Shown piece by piece: positions 470 to 47,958 of a stretch of 64,000 nt of DNA. Within the stretch, counting starts at the first letter, position 1. Each line of letters starts with the position of its first letter. The notes beneath the pieces were generated by a model that made no database searches, was not told where the DNA came from, and saw only the letters and a program-made list of their open reading frames with translations. The DNA lies in NCBI GenBank assembly GCA_035549295.1, contig DASZRG010000039.1, positions 31 to 64,030 on the forward strand. The letters are read 5' to 3'. This DNA is from Patescibacteria group bacterium (GTDB lineage: Bacteria; Patescibacteriota; Microgenomatia; Levybacterales; GWA1-39-11). The translations under genes and the position numbers were made by a program.

Positions 470-744
470 TACAACAATTATAGTGTAAACCCATCCACAA
501 TATTAACTCGTTAACCTACATTTTTATTATTTAAAGTATCTTTTGTTTAGGGTCTACTGTCTACCGACTACTGTAGACAATAAGCCAATATGCTTAATAC
601 TTTCTACTTAATACTAAATACTCGCTTATTCCATATTCACAATTATTTAGCTCGTGATACCCTTGATACCCTTGATACTTCTGATACCTTTCCCCTAACC
701 CCTTGTATCCTAATCGCATAAGTATGCTATGCTATTAACTACCT

Positions 745-19150: not shown

Positions 19151-19167
19151 ACTCTATAAATTAGTTT

Positions 19168-19230
19168 TTAGCGTTTAGCGTTTGGCACTTATTTAAAGCT
19201 ACCAACCCCCAAGAGCTAACAGCTAACTCC
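19168..19230. repeat. dispersed ~70-bp intergenic element with inverted ends (TTAGCGTTTAGC ... ACCAACCCCCAAG ... GCTAACAGCTAA), copy A
   Basis: ttagcgtttagcgtttggcacttatttaaagctaccaacccccaagagctaacagctaa. Confidence 0.55.
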
Positions 19231-33836: not shown

Positions 33837-34043
33837 ACTTTTCTCACCTTGTCAATACTATGAGTTACTTTTGTAGGCTATTTTGTTATCTTATAATCTG
33901 CAATTAATCTGAGTTATATTGGGTGATATGAGGTGATGTTGAGTAGTATTTGTCGAAAGTATCACAAGATAGAGATTGCGAATAATGAATAAAGAAGAAT
34001 GAATAATGAAAATGCGATAACTCGTTAACACGCCCACTAGCTA

Positions 34044-34110
34044 TTAGCGTTTAGCAGTTAGCTTTTAGTTAAGAATACCTACCAACCCCCAAGCGCCAAC
34101 CGCCAACCCC
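34044..34110. repeat. same element, copy B (divergent promoter region between the Xis-like gene and typA)
   Basis: ttagcgtttagcagttagcttttagttaagaatacctaccaacccccaagcgccaaccgccaacccc. Confidence 0.55.
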
Positions 34111-36002: not shown

Positions 36003-36293
36003 AGTATTAAGCAATTACTTTTTAGTGATTAAGACTAAAGGAATTAGTGATTAAGATAATTGACTAATCACTTTAATCTTTTAATCCTAATCACTAGTAG
36101 AGACTTCTAGTATCTCGCATTCTCTTTATTAATTTAACCTAGTACATAAGGACCTAGTACTTAGTGCGCAGTTAAGTACAATAATTAACTACGAACTATG
36201 TTCTATTTCCTGCGTACTAGAGAGTTGCTCTTGATACTTTTGATACCCTTCACTATACTCTCCTTATACTTATCCGAGAGGAGGTGATATTAG

Positions 36294-37991: not shown

Positions 37992-39212
37992 ATGCTGGTG
38001 AGACGTATCAAAAACATCGCACATGGTGTTGAAGCGGAACTCGCAAATGCAATCTACGGATTTGGAAGAAAACAAATTCCAACAATTGGTGTCACCGGCA
38101 CAGATGGTAAGACGACTACAACTAGCCTTATATTTCATATTTTAAAAACGGCAGGATTTAATCCCGCTATGGTAACAACAGTCGGAGCACAAATTGGCGA
38201 CACAACATATGAAACAGGACTTCACACTACAACACCGTCACCGTTTGCTTTACAGAAATATATCAAGAAAGCATCGGATGCTAACTGTGACTATCTAGTT
38301 TTGGAAGTTACATCTCACTCGCTTGACCAGAATAGAACTCGAGGCGTTGACTTCAAAATAGGAGTGCTCACCAATATCACACATGAACATCTAGATTACC
38401 ACGGAACTTACGAAAAATATGCTAGAACAAAAGGGAGACTATTCAAGCGATCTGATATTTCACTTATTAACAAAGACGATGACTCATATAAATTGCTTAA
38501 GCCACTCCTCTCAAACAGAAATGTACTCACATACTCCATAAAAGGTCCCGCTGATTATACGAGTAAGTCAGTGGGGATTAAATTTCCAGGTGAGTACGAT
38601 TTTAATTATGAAAATTTTTTAGCAGCCGTCTCGACTGCCGAGATTTTGGGGATAAAAAAAGAAATGGTACAGAAAGCTTTAGAGACATTTAAATTTCCCA
38701 AAGGCAGACAAGAAATTGTTTATGACCGTGATTTTCGGGTGATTATAGACTTTGCCCACACCCCAAATTCATTTGAACGGATTTTGCCTACGTTAAAGAA
38801 AAATACGAAAGGAAGACTAATTCATATTTTTGGCGCTGCGAGCAAGAGAGACGCTACCAAGCGTCCTCTCATGGGCCATGCATCAGCTTCCCATTCAGAT
38901 ATCATTATTTTGACAGCAGAAGATAGTCGAAACGAAAAAGTTCTTGATATTAACACCCAAATCAAACTCGGCATAACGGGATTTGAAGAGATTGATACCG
39001 AAGAGGCAATTCAGAAGAACAAAAAATTGCTTTTTGAAATATCAGATCGCGCGCGGGCGATTGAGTTTGCCGTTTCGATTGCCCAAACAGGTGACACAGT
39101 TGCTATTACTGGAAAAGGGCATGAACAATCCATGAATCTAGGACACGGTGAAATCCCCTGGAGCGACCACGAAGCCGTTGAAAAAGCAATCAAATTAAAG
39201 TTAACGAGTTAA
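37992..39212 (+). CDS. Mur ligase family protein, MurE-like but lacking the N-terminal domain
   Basis: The P-loop IGVTGTDGKTTTTSLI sits at residue ~33. THEHLDYHGTYEKYARTKGRLF matches the MurE catalytic region and DFAHTP the C-terminal domain. Confidence 0.55.
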   Translation: MLVRRIKNIAHGVEAELANAIYGFGRKQIPTIGVTGTDGKTTTTSLIFHILKTAGFNPAMVTTVGAQIGDTTYETGLHTTTPSPFALQKYIKKASDANCDYLVLEVTSHSLDQNRTRGVDFKIGVLTNITHEHLDYHGTYEKYARTKGRLFKRSDISLINKDDDSYKLLKPLLSNRNVLTYSIKGPADYTSKSVGIKFPGEYDFNYENFLAAVSTAEILGIKKEMVQKALETFKFPKGRQEIVYDRDFRVIIDFAHTPNSFERILPTLKKNTKGRLIHIFGAASKRDATKRPLMGHASASHSDIIILTAEDSRNEKVLDINTQIKLGITGFEEIDTEEAIQKNKKLLFEISDRARAIEFAVSIAQTGDTVAITGKGHEQSMNLGHGEIPWSDHEAVEKAIKLKLTS

Positions 39213-39371
39213 CGCGTTTGCGTGTTAACGAGTTCAATATTTAAAAATTCCAAATTTCTAATAGCTAGTTACTAATCAAGTTTTAATAAATTAACAAATT
39301 ATCAATTTCTATTTTTTAGAAATTAAAAATTAGTAATTAGAAATTCCAACGATGCTCTGATACCCTATGAC

Positions 39372-40388
39372 CTATACCTTCCTTATCTTCCGTCTCAATT
39401 TCTCAAACCAATAATCCACAAGGTATCTCTTACCCTCTACTACCAAGTCTTGTGCGGGCAAATACGCAACGTCTTGTCCTCCAAATCCCCTCTTAAAGAG
39501 AGAGAGTCCTGCGAACCTGTGGTCCTTTGAGCCTTCAGGTGAGACTCCCCAAAAGTTATATCGACTCATTCCTCTTTTTTTTGCCTCGCATATTGCCTCC
39601 CACTGGAGAAGGTATGCTCCAGGGTATCTGCGTCCATCCTCAGTACTTGCCCCATAGTGATATACGGCTTCTTGCCCATAAAAAATAATGAAGGCTTGAG
39701 CTAGTATTTTTCCTTCAAATTTTGCAGTATAAAGGATTGCTTTTTCGTCTTTAATAAAGATATCGAATTGGTTCAAAAGAAATTTCTTAGAAAATGGGAC
39801 AAATTTTTGACGATTTGCAGTTTCAATTTGTAGATCGTAAAACTTTTCAATATTTTTTTCTCCATTTTTCTCAATTTTTATTTCTAACTTTTCTGCTTTT
39901 TTGACCTCGTATCGAGTTGCTTTTCGCATATTAGCGAGTAGCTCTTCTTCGCTTTTTGTTATATCAAGCTGACGAGTAAGCTCAGCATGAAGATACATCG
40001 GAGCAGGCTTAAATCCCAATTTATTAAACGTTACTTGTGAAAAATTATCATCCACGAGTTGCGGACGACATCTTACAAAAACGCATGAATTATCACTTGC
40101 GATTTTTCTAAGTTCCTCGGCAAACTTTTTTAACAAATCTTTGTCTTTCCAATCAACGATGGGGCCTCCAGGAACAACTAGAAATTTACCACGTTTTGAA
40201 GTTTCAATATACGCAAACATCAGACCAAGAAGTTTTTGATTTTCAAAAAAACCAACTCTAAATATTTTTCGAGATAGAGAGGCCTGGAAGTCTCCCCAAA
40301 GCCAACTTTGTAAAAAATTAGCCTCAGTGTGATCGTCCAAAAACCCCTCCCAAGTATTTTTCTCAGATATCTCCCTTGATTCAACCAT
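39372..40388 (-). CDS. FemAB-family peptidoglycan interpeptide-bridge aminoacyltransferase
   Basis: 338 aa. FLQSWLWGDF...AVYHYGASTEDGRRYPGAYLLQWEAICEAKKRG...FKRGFGG is FemX/FemAB-like. Confidence 0.65.
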   Translation of the reverse strand: MVESREISEKNTWEGFLDDHTEANFLQSWLWGDFQASLSRKIFRVGFFENQKLLGLMFAYIETSKRGKFLVVPGGPIVDWKDKDLLKKFAEELRKIASDNSCVFVRCRPQLVDDNFSQVTFNKLGFKPAPMYLHAELTRQLDITKSEEELLANMRKATRYEVKKAEKLEIKIEKNGEKNIEKFYDLQIETANRQKFVPFSKKFLLNQFDIFIKDEKAILYTAKFEGKILAQAFIIFYGQEAVYHYGASTEDGRRYPGAYLLQWEAICEAKKRGMSRYNFWGVSPEGSKDHRFAGLSLFKRGFGGQDVAYLPAQDLVVEGKRYLVDYWFEKLRRKIRKV

Positions 40389-40395
40389 ATTTTGG

Positions 40396-40466
40396 TAGTG
40401 TCATTCTGAACTTGTTTCAGAATCTCATGTCTGAAACCCCGGATCAAGCCCGGGGTGACAAAAAGT
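40396..40466. repeat. dispersed ~65-bp hairpin element, copy 1 (gtcattctgaa..ttcagaatctcat..cccggatcaagcccggg..tgaca); supplies the stop codon and last 4 codons (SPRA*) of the DegT gene
   Basis: Near-identical to copy 2 at 41617-41685. It has nested inverted repeats. In gene-sense RNA it forms CCCCGGGCUUGAUCCGGGG followed by UUU, which is terminator-like. Confidence 0.6.
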
Positions 40467-41610
40467 TATTAATAATTGTGCAGATACGCATCGCATCCTT
40501 TTCCCGCACATTAATATGCGTGGGCAGGTTGACTATTATTTTCGAGTCGGCAACGGCGTTTGGACATTCTGGTGCAACATCAACATACCAAATATCCTCA
40601 AGATAAATCCCCTGCTCTTTTAGTTTTTTTAGGAGTTTGCTTCTCTGTTCGACAAAAATTGGGAACCGCAAGTTTGATGACAGCTTAACTGCTTCCAAAG
40701 TTTTTTGCTTGTCAAACATAAACATGGAGTCAGAAAGCTCCTCGACATATATCGAAGCAATTTTTCTTCTATGCGATAACTGCTCTGATAGCGTCTTAAA
40801 CTGAAATACCGCAAGTGATGCATTCCATGAAGGCAACGAATAATACTCATACAGAGATTCATCCATGATATTTGATAAAAATCCCATTTTCTTTAACAAA
40901 AAATGATAAGCCTTACCAAGCCCCACACCATACATTTCCCTAATTTTGTAAGTAAAACTAGGATAAAACCTCTCCCTTAATCCGCCTGCATTTTTTTGAT
41001 ATTTGATATTTGATATTTGATATTTGATATTCCTAACAACTACCGCTCCTCCCGATACCGCATCAATTATCTTGTCTTGGCTAAAAGAAAGGACTACAAA
41101 ATCGCCAACAGTCCCCGCCTCTTTTCCATTTTTATACTTCGCGCCAATACAATGAGCAAGATCCTCTATCAAGATCAGCTTATGCTCTTTACATATTTTT
41201 TGAATTTCCTCAATATTACATGGGTATCCAAGCGTATTCTGCACAACAACCGCCTTTATTTTTTTATTCATCCTTAAAGACTTCAGGAGACCTTCAGGTG
41301 TGAAATTTAAACCACCGGTCTCTTCTAGATCGATGCAAACAGGCTCAGCTCCCGCGGTTCTAATAGCATTAAAAACCGCAACGCATGTAAAGCCATTTAT
41401 CGCAATTTCAGCATCTTCGGGTAAATCGAGCGCTTTGATTGTTGCCGTTAAAGCCTCTCGCCCCTTGTAAAACAAAGTGGCTTTCCCGCCATATTTTTCC
41501 TCAAGAAGATTTGTAAGCTTGTTTTTATCAGAAGCAGAACCAACGGTCGCAAGGGACTTTAGAACATATGATAAATTGTAATTTGATCCTAACGAATTAA
41601 ATATCGCCAT
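40444..41610 (-). CDS. DegT/DnrJ/EryC1/StrS-family PLP-dependent aminotransferase
   Basis: GFTCVAVFNAIRTAGAEPVCIDLEE...LAHCIGAKYKNGKEAG...DFVVLSFSQDKII. It contains an internal 7-bp tandem repeat and a repeat-derived C-terminus. Confidence 0.75.
   Translation of the reverse strand: MAIFNSLGSNYNLSYVLKSLATVGSASDKNKLTNLLEEKYGGKATLFYKGREALTATIKALDLPEDAEIAINGFTCVAVFNAIRTAGAEPVCIDLEETGGLNFTPEGLLKSLRMNKKIKAVVVQNTLGYPCNIEEIQKICKEHKLILIEDLAHCIGAKYKNGKEAGTVGDFVVLSFSQDKIIDAVSGGAVVVRNIKYQISNIKYQKNAGGLRERFYPSFTYKIREMYGVGLGKAYHFLLKKMGFLSNIMDESLYEYYSLPSWNASLAVFQFKTLSEQLSHRRKIASIYVEELSDSMFMFDKQKTLEAVKLSSNLRFPIFVEQRSKLLKKLKEQGIYLEDIWYVDVAPECPNAVADSKIIVNLPTHINVREKDAMRICTIINNFLSPRA
40998..41031. repeat. heptanucleotide tandem repeat (gatattt) x~5 inside the DegT coding sequence
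   Basis: The DNA reads tttttttGATATTTGATATTTGATATTTGATATTTGATATTcc. It encodes NIKYQISNIKYQ on the minus strand. The 7-bp unit is not a multiple of 3. Confidence 0.7.
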
Positions 41611-41616
41611 ATTTTA

Positions 41617-41685
41617 GATGTCATTCTGAATTTATTTCAGAATCTCATTATCGAGATCCCGGATCAAGTCCGGGATGACAGAAAA
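41617..41685. repeat. dispersed ~65-bp hairpin element, copy 2; supplies the stop codon and last 4 codons (SSRT*) of the alpha/beta hydrolase gene
   Basis: atgtcattctgaatttatttcagaatctcattatcgagatcccggatcaagtccgggatgacag, in the same orientation as copy 1. Confidence 0.6.
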
Positions 41686-42398
41686 CCATTTACTATCTCA
41701 AAAACTTCTTTTGTATTTGTAAATTGAGGAGAATGTTTAGCATTGTCAATAACGAATAGTTTAGACCCGCTAATTAGCTTATTTATTTTAATTCCTCCTG
41801 AAAGAGGAGTAAGCTTATCTTGCTTTCCCCATATTATTAAAGTAGGTGACTGAATTTTTTCGTAAAATTGACCACAATCTATTGAAATCAGATTTAACAT
41901 TGTCATTTTCACTATCGGATTAGCTTTTTCATAATCGTGTTCACCGGCCAGTCTGTAAACCAATTTGCGCAAAATTGGAGCCTGCGTAAACTTCTTGCCA
42001 GATTTAGCCAATATTTTAAAGAAGTTCTTTCTGAATGTTGTAGCTAAATCTTTTCTAAGAATTCCTGCCGCACCAATAAATATTATCTTCTCAACTTTTG
42101 CGGGATATTTAGAAGCAAAAGCTGAAGCAATTCTTGCTCCATTTGAGTGTGCAAGTAGAATGATTTTCTTTTCGCTCTTTGTTTCGCTAGTGAGCCATTC
42201 AACATAATCGTTAATTTCCCAAACAGTATCAAGTGGCGCTGTTAGACCTGGAATCTTGAGCATTTCATAATCCGTTTTATTTTTATCGAGCAGGTCCAGA
42301 AATGGTTTCCATTTTTCTGTTGAGTAAGACCACCCATGCAGTATATATACTTTGATATTTTTGCCTATAGTCCCCATTGTTTTCTTCTTATTTCCCAA
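41664..42398 (-). CDS. alpha/beta hydrolase fold protein
   Basis: GxSxG nucleophile elbow ILLAHSNGARIA. 244 aa. Confidence 0.6.
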   Translation of the reverse strand: MGNKKKTMGTIGKNIKVYILHGWSYSTEKWKPFLDLLDKNKTDYEMLKIPGLTAPLDTVWEINDYVEWLTSETKSEKKIILLAHSNGARIASAFASKYPAKVEKIIFIGAAGILRKDLATTFRKNFFKILAKSGKKFTQAPILRKLVYRLAGEHDYEKANPIVKMTMLNLISIDCGQFYEKIQSPTLIIWGKQDKLTPLSGGIKINKLISGSKLFVIDNAKHSPQFTNTKEVFEIVNGFLSSRT

Positions 42399-43630
42399 AT
42401 CTTTTCGCGACGAGATAGCTTTGACGCTTCCTGCTTGTTTTTAAGGATATTTTCAATAATACCCTCCATAAATCGAGCTCCTTTGAAAAGTATAGTTTCT
42501 CCACCTTTTATATTTACCGTCAGGTAATCTAAGACATCCTTAGGTGATACAAATGAAACAACATTTTTCCCATAGTGGTTTTCGAGAATTGAAAAACCAT
42601 GCTTTTTAATTCTAGGACCTAGCAAAATTACCTTTTCGTAATCTGACTTAACGACAAGTTTTGCCAATTTCTCATGCTCCTCTTTTTCTTCCTCTCCTTG
42701 CTCAAGCATGTCTCCAATAACAGCCCATTTGTTATCTGCCTTTATTAGATTGAACATGTTGATGATCTCAGTTGCCGAGGAAAAGCTTGAATTGTAGCAA
42801 CTATCGACTATCGTTGTATTTTTTACACCTTCAAATATGCTGCTTCGACCTGGCGGAATATCAAATTTGTCAAACTTATCATCAAACGAAAAACCAAGAT
42901 AATTTGTTAATTCCAATATTGCCGATATGGAGTATGAAATTGCCCTGGGAAGTAAAAATCTAAATTTGTATATATCATTTTTAAGCTGATATTCTGTTCC
43001 ACCCGTCGAAACCTTGTAGCTTTTTAGACTTTTTTCTGTGACTTTAATTACATCTGCTTTACTTCTAATAAGTTGCGACATTATTAAATCTGAATCAGAA
43101 TTAATAATTACAAGCTTTGATGTATTTTCTAGGAAATATCCGTATTCGTACGCAATAGCTTCTTCAACATTTTTAAACTTACCAGATGAAACTAAATAAT
43201 CAAAATTCATGCTGTGCGTTCTAGATGAGGATAGCCAAATTGTCACTTCGGGTTTTAAGAATTCTGAAAGAAATATTCCTTCGTTAGGTCTATCACAATC
43301 TGCTTCCACAACATATATTTTCTGTCTCGGAACACTCGAAAAAGCTTTAATTGGTGCGCTCAAAAAAATATTAATCCATTCTAACTTCTGTAAGGTTTCA
43401 CGATGGATTCCAAGAATATTAAATGGGATACCAAATGAGCTGTTCGCATGATGAGAATAAGTAGCGTTTTCCCTCAACTGCGCAATAGCAAGATTCATAG
43501 TTGTCGTTTTACCTGCTGATCCAGTAATAACAACGACTCGCGGCTTCCACCGTGCGAGTTTTATCTTCGCAAAGAAGCGAAAATACCCCGCGATCGGAAA
43601 ATACAATAATTTCTTTATTGATCCCAACAT
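42365..43630 (-). CDS. Mur ligase family protein, MurF-like
   Basis: P-loop VVVITGSAGKTTTMNLAIAQL. The C-terminal DSCYNSSFSSATEIINMF resembles MurF DDSYNAN. Confidence 0.5.
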   Translation of the reverse strand: MLGSIKKLLYFPIAGYFRFFAKIKLARWKPRVVVITGSAGKTTTMNLAIAQLRENATYSHHANSSFGIPFNILGIHRETLQKLEWINIFLSAPIKAFSSVPRQKIYVVEADCDRPNEGIFLSEFLKPEVTIWLSSSRTHSMNFDYLVSSGKFKNVEEAIAYEYGYFLENTSKLVIINSDSDLIMSQLIRSKADVIKVTEKSLKSYKVSTGGTEYQLKNDIYKFRFLLPRAISYSISAILELTNYLGFSFDDKFDKFDIPPGRSSIFEGVKNTTIVDSCYNSSFSSATEIINMFNLIKADNKWAVIGDMLEQGEEEKEEHEKLAKLVVKSDYEKVILLGPRIKKHGFSILENHYGKNVVSFVSPKDVLDYLTVNIKGGETILFKGARFMEGIIENILKNKQEASKLSRREKIWEIRRKQWGL

Positions 43631-44073
43631 TTGAATTTATTATACCAAGAACTACTAAAACAATGTCATTGCGAGCGAGCAAACGAACGCAGTGAAGTAC
43701 AGCGAAGAGAAGCAATCTCAGGTTATTCGATTTTCGGTTACGATGCCAGTATCGTTAGCAGGTCTACGTTAAACGTATGACTTAACCGATACGGGCCTCG
43801 CTACCTTACACCACAACCAATTAAAATTAGCCCGTAATACACGTGATACCCGTTATGCACTTGATACTCTTAATCACTTATTCTTTTACTGGTATACCGG
43901 TATATAAGTAATAAATGTGACCCAGCCTACAAATATATTTTAATACTAGTATACATGTATACCTGTGGCAATTAGCTCATGATACTCTTGATACTCGTGG
44001 TACCCTTGATACTCTTGGTACTTCTAAACTCCCTCTTGATTTACTCCCCGCGCTTCAACTATATTAGATACTT

Positions 44074-44603: not shown

Positions 44604-44672
44604 GCATTTAGCAGCTAGGGGTTGGCAGTTAGTTTTATTACTAACACCCAAAAGCCAAGCGCTAAACCCTAA
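44604..44672. repeat. same element, copy C (inverted orientation; convergent gene ends)
   Basis: gcatttagcagctaggggttggcagttag...ccaagcgctaaaccc contains ggggttgg, the reverse complement of ccaacccc. Confidence 0.45.
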
Positions 44673-46260: not shown

Positions 46261-46300
46261 CGAACCTGTCAGGCATAATACTCCTGTCATTTCCGCGCAC

Positions 46301-47791
46301 GTGGGAATCCAGAGTAAATTTTTCCAATATCTAACTTTGAATCAGAATTGGTATTGCTGTAAAATCGCACTTATGGCAACTTATGAATCCGAAACTCAGG
46401 TAACCGCCGAACGAACAGCCGAACAAGACGTAAAGTTTAATGTTGTTCGTAATCTAAAATTTGGCAGTTTACTTCCACTCCCCAACGGGAAACCATTCGG
46501 TGGGGAGACTGTCACTGCATACAGATATCAACAAGGCGCCAGAACGGAATACCTCATCGTTTTTGGTCCACTTAGTGGGTATCAATTATACAAGAGACTA
46601 AATGACGTAGCACGCGTAAAAGACGAGTTTGATGGTGTAAGAGCCGATTTCAGTGGAATTCTTTCAAGTGCAGAACTTTGGAAGCGACACAATGCTGACA
46701 TGCCAGAAGCGTGGGCAGAATATGCGTCCTCAATTCAGCGTCAAAATGATGTAATGCAAACATTCAAACCTAGCGGGCTGCCTATTATACCCCACCAAGC
46801 ATATATGCAATTGGAGAGAGCCAGGAACTCTTACTCAGCACTTGCGGAACACCAATCACAAGCTGACAACACAGTCGATAAAGCTTACAACCAAGCAACT
46901 AGAATGCTTTCTGGAGATATGCCTGTAGATATTCAATTTATCTCCCACTTTCTTCAAATTAGTAGCAGCGACATTGGAATGCGAGGGGTTAGTAGGGGGG
47001 ATTTTACCAGATTAGTAAATGGGTTTGGATCACCTAAAATTAGAGAACAATTCCTTAATCGTTTCAAGAAGGTAGTTGCAGAAAAGTCGAGGGACGAGAA
47101 TGGTGATTTGGATAAAACTAAATTAAGAAGTTACGCAGAACAAACGACCACAACACCCAAAGGCCTAATTAGGAAAAAAATTGACGACAAATATTTCTTG
47201 TATCCTACACACCTCGAACCATATTTAAATTCCTGGCATGTTCAGCAAATATCGGGTGTACAACTTAATGAGAATGGGGAATTCGTTATTCCACCTGATG
47301 CCAAAGAGAAAGTAGATGCAGAAATCAAAAGATTAGACGGAGATATTTTAAGAAAGCGTTCAATAATACCCATAATTCGCTTTGCAGAAACAGATCAGGG
47401 AGTTTCGGGTTTTGTGTTTAGTCATTCTGAAGCAAGTACGCCCCTGCCTTCATCTGTTCTAAAAGACATTGATAGCTCTACTGCCCGAGAAGCTTTGGAT
47501 ACAGAAGAATTTCACGAAGGCTGGCTATCAGGCGCAGTAGGAAATTTACTACTCATAGGTAGTCATCCCAAAATTAAGGAAATTAATGACTCTTGGAGCA
47601 GAATTTGGCAGAGAACTATGATTAGACGATCAGAAGCGGCTGGGCTTGATTCTACACTCCACGAACCACTGAATATTAATGGGCCTGTTCAAGTAGGTCT
47701 TATAGCAACCGTTGCACTCGCAAGATATCCCCAACACTTCAACCACTTTAAAGAAGCAGTCAAGAATCAGTTTGGAAGAATTAGAGATTAG
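46301..47791 (+). CDS. large hypothetical protein with no recognisable domain
   Basis: 496-aa ORF. The real start may be the internal Met near 46373 (MATYESE). It ends 53 nt from the 3' end of the tRNA-Leu. Confidence 0.4.
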   Translation: MGIQSKFFQYLTLNQNWYCCKIALMATYESETQVTAERTAEQDVKFNVVRNLKFGSLLPLPNGKPFGGETVTAYRYQQGARTEYLIVFGPLSGYQLYKRLNDVARVKDEFDGVRADFSGILSSAELWKRHNADMPEAWAEYASSIQRQNDVMQTFKPSGLPIIPHQAYMQLERARNSYSALAEHQSQADNTVDKAYNQATRMLSGDMPVDIQFISHFLQISSSDIGMRGVSRGDFTRLVNGFGSPKIREQFLNRFKKVVAEKSRDENGDLDKTKLRSYAEQTTTTPKGLIRKKIDDKYFLYPTHLEPYLNSWHVQQISGVQLNENGEFVIPPDAKEKVDAEIKRLDGDILRKRSIIPIIRFAETDQGVSGFVFSHSEASTPLPSSVLKDIDSSTAREALDTEEFHEGWLSGAVGNLLLIGSHPKIKEINDSWSRIWQRTMIRRSEAAGLDSTLHEPLNINGPVQVGLIATVALARYPQHFNHFKEAVKNQFGRIRD

Positions 47792-47843
47792 CTCGTGATA
47801 CACTTGGTACCCTTGATACTCGTGATGCTTTTGACTAACTCGG

Positions 47844-47958
47844 TGCCTGGGGTGGGACTCGAACCCGCATGACGTAAGTCACACGCTCTTAAGGCGTGCG
47901 TGTATACCATTCCACCACTGGCCCAATTCTGCTGGATGGATTATTCCACCACCCAGGC
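47844..47958 (-). tRNA. tRNA-Leu (anticodon TAA) with a ~33-bp insertion/duplication in the D-loop region (possible pseudogene)
   Basis: Hand-fold. The anticodon arm is CACGC-CUUAAGA-GCGUG. There is a variable-arm hairpin UGAC-UUAC-GUCA (type II). The T-arm is GCGGG-UUCGAGU-CCCAC with one C-A mismatch. The 3' acceptor strand is CCCAGGC+A. A perfectly matching 5' acceptor GCCUGGG-UG-GUGG-AAU exists only at 47943-47958. A degenerate duplicate (GCCAGUG-GUGG-AAU) lies at 47909-47922. Confidence 0.5.

Follow-up and report, generated by a model that had tools for sequence, protein, structure and literature searches.

The repeat-bearing operon

The window, i.e. the whole 64-kb stretch of DNA analyzed here from a Patescibacteria metagenome-assembled genome, contains a minus-strand operon in which a Mur-ligase-like gene is followed by genes for an alpha/beta hydrolase, a DegT-family aminotransferase and a FemAB-family protein, as judged from the ORF list and Pfam matches (Table 1). 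The nearest named relatives of the DegT protein, by protein similarity, come from Levybacteria. The Mur-ligase-like gene overlaps the hydrolase gene, and that junction is free of repeats. The hydrolase/DegT and DegT/FemAB junctions are gaps of 53 and 55 nt, respectively, each occupied almost entirely by one copy of an element of approximately 62 nt, and 10 nt past copy 1 comes the FemAB start codon. A repeat search recovered both of the similar copies reported in an earlier sequence-only reading of this DNA, placing them at 40399-40464 and 41619-41684 with 83% identity; the elements as delimited in Table 1 are 83-85% identical, and in a MAFFT alignment of about 100 nt the identity is 85%. Used as patterns, the two halves of the element each match solely these two places in the 64 kb, and none of 100 shuffles contained a match. 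Beyond the four hairpin units that make up the two elements, no copies in the window were found by a mismatch search, a generic hairpin scan or a search with the covariance model R1 (see below) with filters off. An NTS-like sequence at 46285-46308 was considered as an extra unit and discarded as not significant (10 bits, E = 3.8).

The stop codons of the DegT and hydrolase genes do fall at the same offset of the element, as had been claimed: in both cases the TGA constitutes the last three bases of a CTTGA loop in a GC-rich hairpin, and the translated proteins end in NNFLSPRA and NGFLSSRT, respectively. The nested inverted repeats of the earlier description, on the other hand, are better described as two hairpins side by side, with a short GTCA/TGAC pairing enclosing them. 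DNA folding yields these two hairpins on both strands (z = -3.8 to -5.1, 0 of 200 shuffles being equally good), and RNA folding, which had been suggested as a check, likewise gives two hairpins on both strands (z = -3.0 to -4.0 relative to shuffled sequence).

Anatomy of the hairpin units

In a hairpin scan each element resolves into two 25-nt units that are inverted relative to each other. All units follow one plan: the tag TGTC is followed by a stem of 8 bp that encloses a loop of 5 nt, and a CTC-type tail closes the unit. Unit A, on the plus strand, has the general form TGTC-ATTCTGAA-(CTTGT or TTTAT)-TTCAGAAT-CTC, and unit B, on the minus strand, the form TGTC-A(T/C)CCCGG(A/G)-CTTGA-TCCGGG(A/G)T-(C/T)TC. 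These are variants of a single design (GTCAT, 8-bp stem, YTTRN loop, return stem, ATC), and their stems differ by compensating changes. The differences between copy 1 and copy 2 are also mostly paired: in the loop C..G is replaced by T..A, and in the stem a U-A pair by C-G and an A-U pair by G-U. In each copy one unit lies on each strand, a 12-nt spacer separates the two, and the tags point outward, making it a head-to-head heterodimer.

The two copies further have in common a 9-nt flank, AAAATATGG, which extends over the downstream gene's start codon and is absent in that form from the orthologues; the flank may have travelled with the element when it was copied, or may just represent the local start-codon context. 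No target-site duplication can be called at either copy, as the flanks are mirror-symmetric and not direct repeats, being T-rich ahead of each tag and hence A-rich past the dimer.

Table 1. Genes and repeat units at the locus, in window coordinates. Scores are from the covariance model R1, built without window sequences.
Feature	Position	Strand	Description	Evidence
FemAB-family gene	39372-40388	-		ORF list; Pfam PF02388, E = 9e-43
Copy 1, whole element	40399-40460			
Copy 1 unit A	40399-40426	+	tag TGTC 40399-40402; stem ATTCTGAA 40403-40410; loop CTTGT 40411-40415; stem TTCAGAAT 40416-40423; tail CTC 40424-40426	R1 44.8 bits, E = 3e-8
Copy 1 unit B	40433-40460	-	tag TGTC 40460-40457; stem ACCCCGGG; loop CTTGA 40448-40444; stem TCCGGGGT; tail TTC; DegT TGA stop = loop bases 40446-40444	R1 30.6 bits, E = 6e-5
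DegT/DnrJ/EryC1-family aminotransferase gene	40444-41610	-	four terminal codons and stop supplied by copy 1 unit B	ORF list, Pfam, homologue C-termini
Copy 2, whole element	41619-41680			
Copy 2 unit A	41619-41646	+	tag TGTC; stem ATTCTGAA; loop TTTAT; stem TTCAGAAT; tail CTC	R1 40.0 bits, E = 4e-7
Copy 2 unit B	41653-41680	-	tag TGTC; stem ATCCCGGA; loop CTTGA 41668-41664; stem TCCGGGAT; tail CTC; hydrolase TGA stop = loop bases 41666-41664	R1 42.8 bits, E = 9e-8
Alpha/beta hydrolase gene	41664-42398	-	four terminal codons and stop supplied by copy 2 unit B	ORF list, Pfam, ortholog junctions
Mur-ligase-like gene	42365-43630	-	first gene of the operon	ORF list, Pfam

Relationship to CGTC-tagged REPs and Ssn-related motifs

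The two repeats are real copies of an already described family, the CGTC-tagged REPs, also known as Ssn-related motifs (SRMs), and their membership is shown both by their anatomy and by model score. CGTC-tagged REPs are characterized by an unpaired CGTC tag (with the variants TGTC and CCTC), by stems that start with A-T and are 8-9 bp long, by 4-5 nt loops and by a 3-nt tail with the consensus CCA, the type CGTC-2 combining an 8-bp stem with a 5-nt loop (Di Nocera, De Gregorio & Rocco 2013, PMC3733652). They occur mostly as head-to-head dimers, with heterodimers predominating in type CGTC-2, and REPs often abut or overlap ORF ends, where they can provide stop codons (PMC3733652). The window elements resemble CGTC-2 in their TGTC tag, 8-bp stem beginning A-T, 5-nt loop and tail length of 3 nt, in forming head-to-head heterodimers with a short spacer that has complementary ends, and in lying near or overlapping ORF 3' ends. 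They differ from it in their Patescibacteria host, as the published CGTC hosts come from five phyla and are mostly Alphaproteobacteria (PMC3733652), in their tails (CTC in three units and TTC in one, as opposed to CCA), and in one of the four stems, where an initial AC, matched by a compensating change on the partner side, stands in place of the AT of the other three. Their copy number stands at 4 units in 64 kb of this genome.

[quoted passage not shown] The dRS3 elements differ from those of the window in belonging to the type with a 4-nt loop (CGTC-1) and in forming large clusters. RPEs are known to contribute coding sequence to host genes, typically as in-frame insertions within them; the window elements similarly give coding sequence to their host genes, in the form of two C-termini, but are situated at gene ends.

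The pattern used in the published search for SRMs is HGTCWYN(0-2)YYVSBRHN(0-5)WNVSBRGN(0-2)RNCYNB (Chenal et al. 2025, PMC11893778). On simulated sequence it gives 0.12 matches per window, and here it matches one of the four units (copy 2 unit B, at 41652-41680 on the minus strand); the other three miss it at one or two positions, in the CTGAA stem or in the tail. The window units share with SRMs the oriented hairpin, the HGTC head and the C directly after the palindrome, and the repeat-gene-repeat layout of SRMs is also present around DegT. The differences are that the 64 kb are without an ssn gene and that the published pattern leaves out three of the four units.

Distribution and conserved features of the family

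A scan of other genomes, one per species, with the pattern GTCATYCYGRANNNNNTYCRGRATC detected near-identical units at no fewer than 120 loci across many phyla, the matches listed including Patescibacteria, Saccharibacteria, Gracilibacteria, Sphingomonadaceae, Rhizobiaceae, Treponema, Bacteroidota, Melainabacteria, Elusimicrobiota, Dehalococcoidia and others. Among the 148 units in the matches listed, the stem is fully paired in 144, where the search pattern by itself would lead one to expect about 42%, and T or C precedes GTC in 134. The loops, which the pattern leaves free, are CTTGT in 46 of these units, CTTGA in 40 and TTTAT in 19, all three of which occur in the window; CTC is the commonest tail (48), and CCA is found in 42. 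Pairs of neighboring units in the matches listed, as delineated by a generic unit finder, comprise 54 head-to-head, 14 tail-to-tail and 11 tandem arrangements, and 50 of the 54 head-to-head pairs are heterodimers with two different stems. The type with the CTGAA stem is the commonest among the matches listed.

An alignment of 140 distinct units from the matches listed shows that seven of the eight stem pairs vary on both sides, a count that is partly circular as pairing had been a criterion for choosing the units. No such selection applies to positions 1 and 4 of the loop, which are C-G in 110 of the 140 and T-A in 26, and are paired in 137. Paired changes of this very kind also distinguish the two window copies. 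The covariance model R1, built from 140 units of other genomes with the window sequences left out, retrieves all four units from the 64-kb window (E = 3e-8 to 6e-5), the sole other match below E = 0.1 being the reverse strand of copy 2 unit A. These observations bear on the idea that the resemblance of the two copies is a matter of local duplication or of chance similarity confined to the locus. Such an origin would agree with the occurrence of just two copies in 64 kb, 1.2 kb apart, and with their common flank that takes in the downstream start codon; as a complete explanation, however, it is refuted by the occurrence of near-identical units at the 120 or more loci elsewhere and by the detection of all four units by a model that contains no window sequence, and we regard it as scarcely tenable. 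The second copy may nevertheless have been copied from the first, with the element still not being private to the locus.

Insertion at tight gene junctions

The contigs available for comparison carry the closest homologues of the window DegT, which are only 64-69% identical to it. Three of these relatives (L122, L123 and L125) keep the order Mur-ligase-like, hydrolase, DegT, FemAB. Their hydrolase and DegT genes overlap by 11-14 nt in L122 and L123 and are 3 nt apart in L125, and their DegT and FemAB genes overlap by 16 nt in L125 and are 9 nt apart in L122; there are no repeats at either junction in L125. Alignment of C-termini, another check that had been suggested, shows that most DegT homologues end in LINQWKQK, as opposed to IINNF followed by LSPRA in the window protein. 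The start of the gene, ATGGC(R)ATATTTAATTC, is conserved and on this account native. Given that the junctions of the relatives overlap or nearly abut, the elements are insertions, and judging from these sequence comparisons the native 3' ends and C-termini of both genes have been replaced by a dispersed, probably mobile repeat. Of the earlier proposal that a mobile or duplicated terminator cassette replaced the native 3' ends, the replacement by a dispersed and probably mobile repeat thus survives and the terminator does not. Nor are the two copies direct repeats around a DegT cassette, as had also been proposed, because DegT occupies its place in the same gene order in the relatives, including the repeat-less L125. 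As the comparison genomes share just 64-69% DegT identity, the insertions are old.

In L122 and L123 other YGTC-tagged hairpin-like units start at the same DegT codon, directly past the Phe, and the DegT proteins end in FLSMRAK and FTSLRESEVNAAI, respectively; L123 carries one more dimer (R1 E = 0.003). This common insertion point reflects either a single insertion long ago, with later replacement of its sequence, or a favored landing site.

The terminator part of the earlier proposal, an intrinsic terminator or attenuator cassette, had its basis in a GC stem followed by UUU. This holds for copy 1, where in mRNA sense an 8-bp GC-rich stem is followed by UUUC (GGGGUUUC), and fails for copy 2, which reads GGGAUCUC. 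A scan of positions 39000-44000 returned nine terminator-like sites, none of them at the elements on either strand, and a T-run is missing after the stems, which are followed by UUUCAG in copy 1 and AUCUCG in copy 2. Moreover, the tails of the family are CTC or CCA and not T-runs among the matches listed, and the copies lie between genes that in the relatives overlap or are 3-9 nt apart. A terminator is accordingly very improbable.

Association with GIY-YIG nucleases

Among the genome-scan matches listed, small GIY-YIG ORFs adjoin the units in 4 of the 5 loci that have such an ORF. An independent sample consisted of 80 metagenomic loci picked solely by similarity to the GIY-YIG protein, in which R1 gave 183 hits. 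A unit is located within 120 nt of the GIY-YIG gene in 50 of the 80 loci, and units are found on both sides in 34; unit density amounts to 5.7 per kb near the gene versus 0.105 per kb at more than 500 nt from it, a 54-fold enrichment. Units upstream of the GIY-YIG genes are mostly on the plus strand (42 vs 16) and those downstream mostly on the minus strand (36 vs 14), and the tags of the flanking units face outward. The proteins encoded at the sampled loci match Pfam PF01541 (E = 2e-18), and one of the ORFs is 38% identical (E = 5e-22) to a 94-aa ORF in the gonococcal NTS/dRS3 array. The same layout is seen in isolates, namely on pNL2 of N. aromaticivorans, in A. lipoferum, where the GIY-YIG gene lies between sufB and sufC, and in the dRS3 array of N. 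gonorrhoeae. Stem types of the window themselves flank GIY-YIG genes elsewhere, ATTCTGAA in locus L144 and ACCCCGGG in locus L184.

This link between GIY-YIG genes and such units, which we reached independently, has already been published by Chenal et al. 2025 and is not new. Ssn proteins are GIY-YIG single-strand DNA nucleases of about 94 aa, whose hairpin targets are named NTS in Neisseria and SRM generally, and the SRM-associated ssn genes encode small, single-domain GIY-YIG (cd10448) nucleases (PMC11893778). SRMs were found near 71% of ssn homologues and on both sides of 42% (PMC11893778), with which the 62% and 42% of our sampled loci agree. Binding by Ssn requires the hairpin to be single-stranded DNA in one particular orientation and involves recognition of the stem sequence as well as of the hairpin shape; the cut is made a few nucleotides 5' of the tag (PMC11893778). 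In N. meningitidis, transformation by DNA that carries NTS is lowered by the system (PMC11893778). As the stem sequence is also recognized, the presence of two different stems in each dimer would call for a tolerant enzyme or for two enzymes. No GIY-YIG or ssn gene was detected in the 64-kb window by hmmsearch of all stop-to-stop ORFs of at least 50 aa.

The layout of the elements also recalls REPIN/RAYT systems and the BIMEs of E. coli, in which inverted hairpin doublets similarly lie between genes, and all of these presumably depend on a nuclease or transposase that recognizes single-stranded hairpins. The GTAG-tagged REPs of Pseudomonas and E. coli are of the REPIN/RAYT type. The possibility that the window elements are REPINs proper, that is, REP doublets moved by a RAYT, a Y1 HUH transposase, would account for the two inverted units, the short spacer and the intergenic position. 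We nevertheless consider it highly unlikely, as the tag is YGTC (TGTC in the window) and not GTAG, the CGTC class has been reported to be without an associated transposase gene (PMC3733652), and the gene between outward-facing units in the 80 protein-selected loci encodes a GIY-YIG nuclease and not a Y1 HUH transposase.

Functional and evolutionary implications

Taken as a whole, the evidence very probably points to head-to-head CGTC-REP/SRM heterodimers, acting as DNA-level hairpins, that were inserted at two junctions and gave the upstream genes new ends. By analogy with the characterized systems, the copies would be DNA-level hairpin elements and putative targets of Ssn, and with one unit per strand a cuttable site is predicted whichever strand turns single-stranded. 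On this reading the two dimers entered just upstream of the DegT and FemAB start codons, with loss of that part of the upstream gene which formerly overlapped the next gene; the upstream frames now enter a GC-rich unit, have gained 4-5 element-encoded residues and end at the TGA of the loop. We infer that this genome may possess an Ssn, that the units may be cut or moved in it, and that they may affect the operon mRNA.

An alternative is that the hairpins have been selected for a role at the RNA level, either stabilizing the upstream mRNA against 3' exonucleases or uncoupling the translation of genes that formerly overlapped, as has been described for the REPs of E. coli. Both copies have the same polarity inside one minus-strand operon, and their mRNA-sense strand folds better than shuffled sequence (z = -3.0 to -3.25). 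Among the matches listed, 35 of 129 repeat clusters contain an ORF stop codon or lie within 20 nt of an ORF 3' end, although this is a crude count, based on raw ORFs in GC-rich loci, and many REPs have been argued to be transcribed, near ORF 3' ends (PMC3733652). However, G-U pairs make up less than 1% of stem cells in the 140 units (9 of 1120), which is unlike selected RNA helices, and both strands fold equally well; these two features are better accommodated by a role at the DNA level. Furthermore, the characterized partner, Ssn, binds single-stranded DNA and does not bind RNA (PMC11893778), and Rfam gave no match at the gathering score across the whole window and none at E <= 1 at the locus. 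Selection for an RNA-level role therefore appears improbable, and an incidental effect on the operon mRNA or on translational coupling is possible.

Within the preferred explanation of inserted DNA-level hairpins, it is conceivable, though we are inclined to doubt it, that such dimers are gene-less but still mobile derivatives of repeat-ssn-repeat cassettes, which prefer tight junctions and are replaced there over time by other subtypes. This proposal is prompted by the different YGTC-tagged units at the same DegT codon in three related genomes, by the CTGAA-stem subtype, which is outside the published SRM pattern and yet flanks GIY-YIG genes, and by the fact that Patescibacteria are not discussed in either of the two studies of the family (PMC3733652, PMC11893778).

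The case in the window is tidy but ordinary, and the family to which it belongs has already been described. For annotation it means that the last residues of the DegT and hydrolase proteins are repeat-encoded, that the 53-55 nt gaps are repeat insertions and not regulatory regions, and that DegT is not a mobile cassette. Beyond this, it joins two literatures that do not cite each other, on CGTC-tagged REPs (2013) and on Ssn-related motifs (2025), and adds to the family a host group, the Patescibacteria, and a subtype with the CTGAA stem, which escapes the published SRM pattern. The clean comparison of filled and empty junctions is the kind of evidence needed for asking whether these repeats move. 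If the dimers were indeed gene-less mobile derivatives, Ssn would be the engine of a new system of single-strand DNA transposition or homing, with the candidate phyla radiation included in its range.

Structure and placement of the hairpin units

In the alignment of 140 hairpin units from other genomes the first and fourth loop positions (columns 14 and 17) covary, with C-G in 110 units and T-A in 26, which implies that they form a ninth pair that would close a 2-nt mini-loop and leave one extra 3' base. The stability of CTTG and TTTA mini-loops in DNA hairpins is known. The covariance model derived from these units (R1) gives the NTS-like candidate at window 46285-46308, which resembles a decayed form with a 4-nt loop, a score of just 10 bits (E = 3.8).

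The same 9 nucleotides, AAAATATGG, come after either element in the mRNA sense, and the following gene's start codon is part of them; this exact context is absent from the orthologous junctions. At the DegT 3' end in two loci of related genomes with the same operon order (L122 and L123) there are units different from those of the window, which begin at the same DegT codon as the window element and likewise supply the stop codon. The contig end of L123 falls within a further dimer. Elsewhere, the placements of GIY-YIG genes in an Azospirillum and a Planktothrix replicon (L207 and L210) look like insertions into operons.

Features in the window and in compared loci
Feature	Location	Remarks
Flank common to both elements, AAAATATGG	window 40386-40398, 41608-41618	9 nt
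Candidate unit, GTCATTTCCGCGCACGTGGGAATC	window 46285-46308	NTS/CGTC-1-like
YGTC-tagged hairpin units	L122 4975-5010; L123 3920-4022	
ssn-like GIY-YIG gene, repeat dimers on either side	L207, A. lipoferum 4B AZO_p3, 254521-256790	between sufB and sufC
GIY-YIG gene	L210, Planktothrix plasmid p1	between MmeI-type enzyme gene and drmA of DISARM system
Heptanucleotide TTTGATA, 5.3 perfect tandem copies	window 40995-41031	DegT coding region; TRF score 74
Arrays of 9-bp period (GATACYCKT)	window 647-715, 36230-36274, 43827-44034, 47788-47841	
Element rich in TTAGCG/GCTAAC, 3 copies	window 19162-19230, 34038-34110, 44638-44669	~70 nt; intergenic

Other repeats of the window

Upstream of the operon, the divergent region contains one of the 9-bp-period arrays; another immediately adjoins tRNA-Leu (47842-47922). 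The third copy of the TTAGCG/GCTAAC element, which sits between convergent genes, is the only one to fold better than shuffled sequences (z = -2.6).

The heptanucleotide repeat encodes the peptide RNIKYQISNIKYQK, positioned in a variable loop of the DegT protein. Because the gain or loss of a single TTTGATA unit would result in a frameshift in DegT, this repeat could be a slipped-strand on/off switch of a surface-glycan gene.
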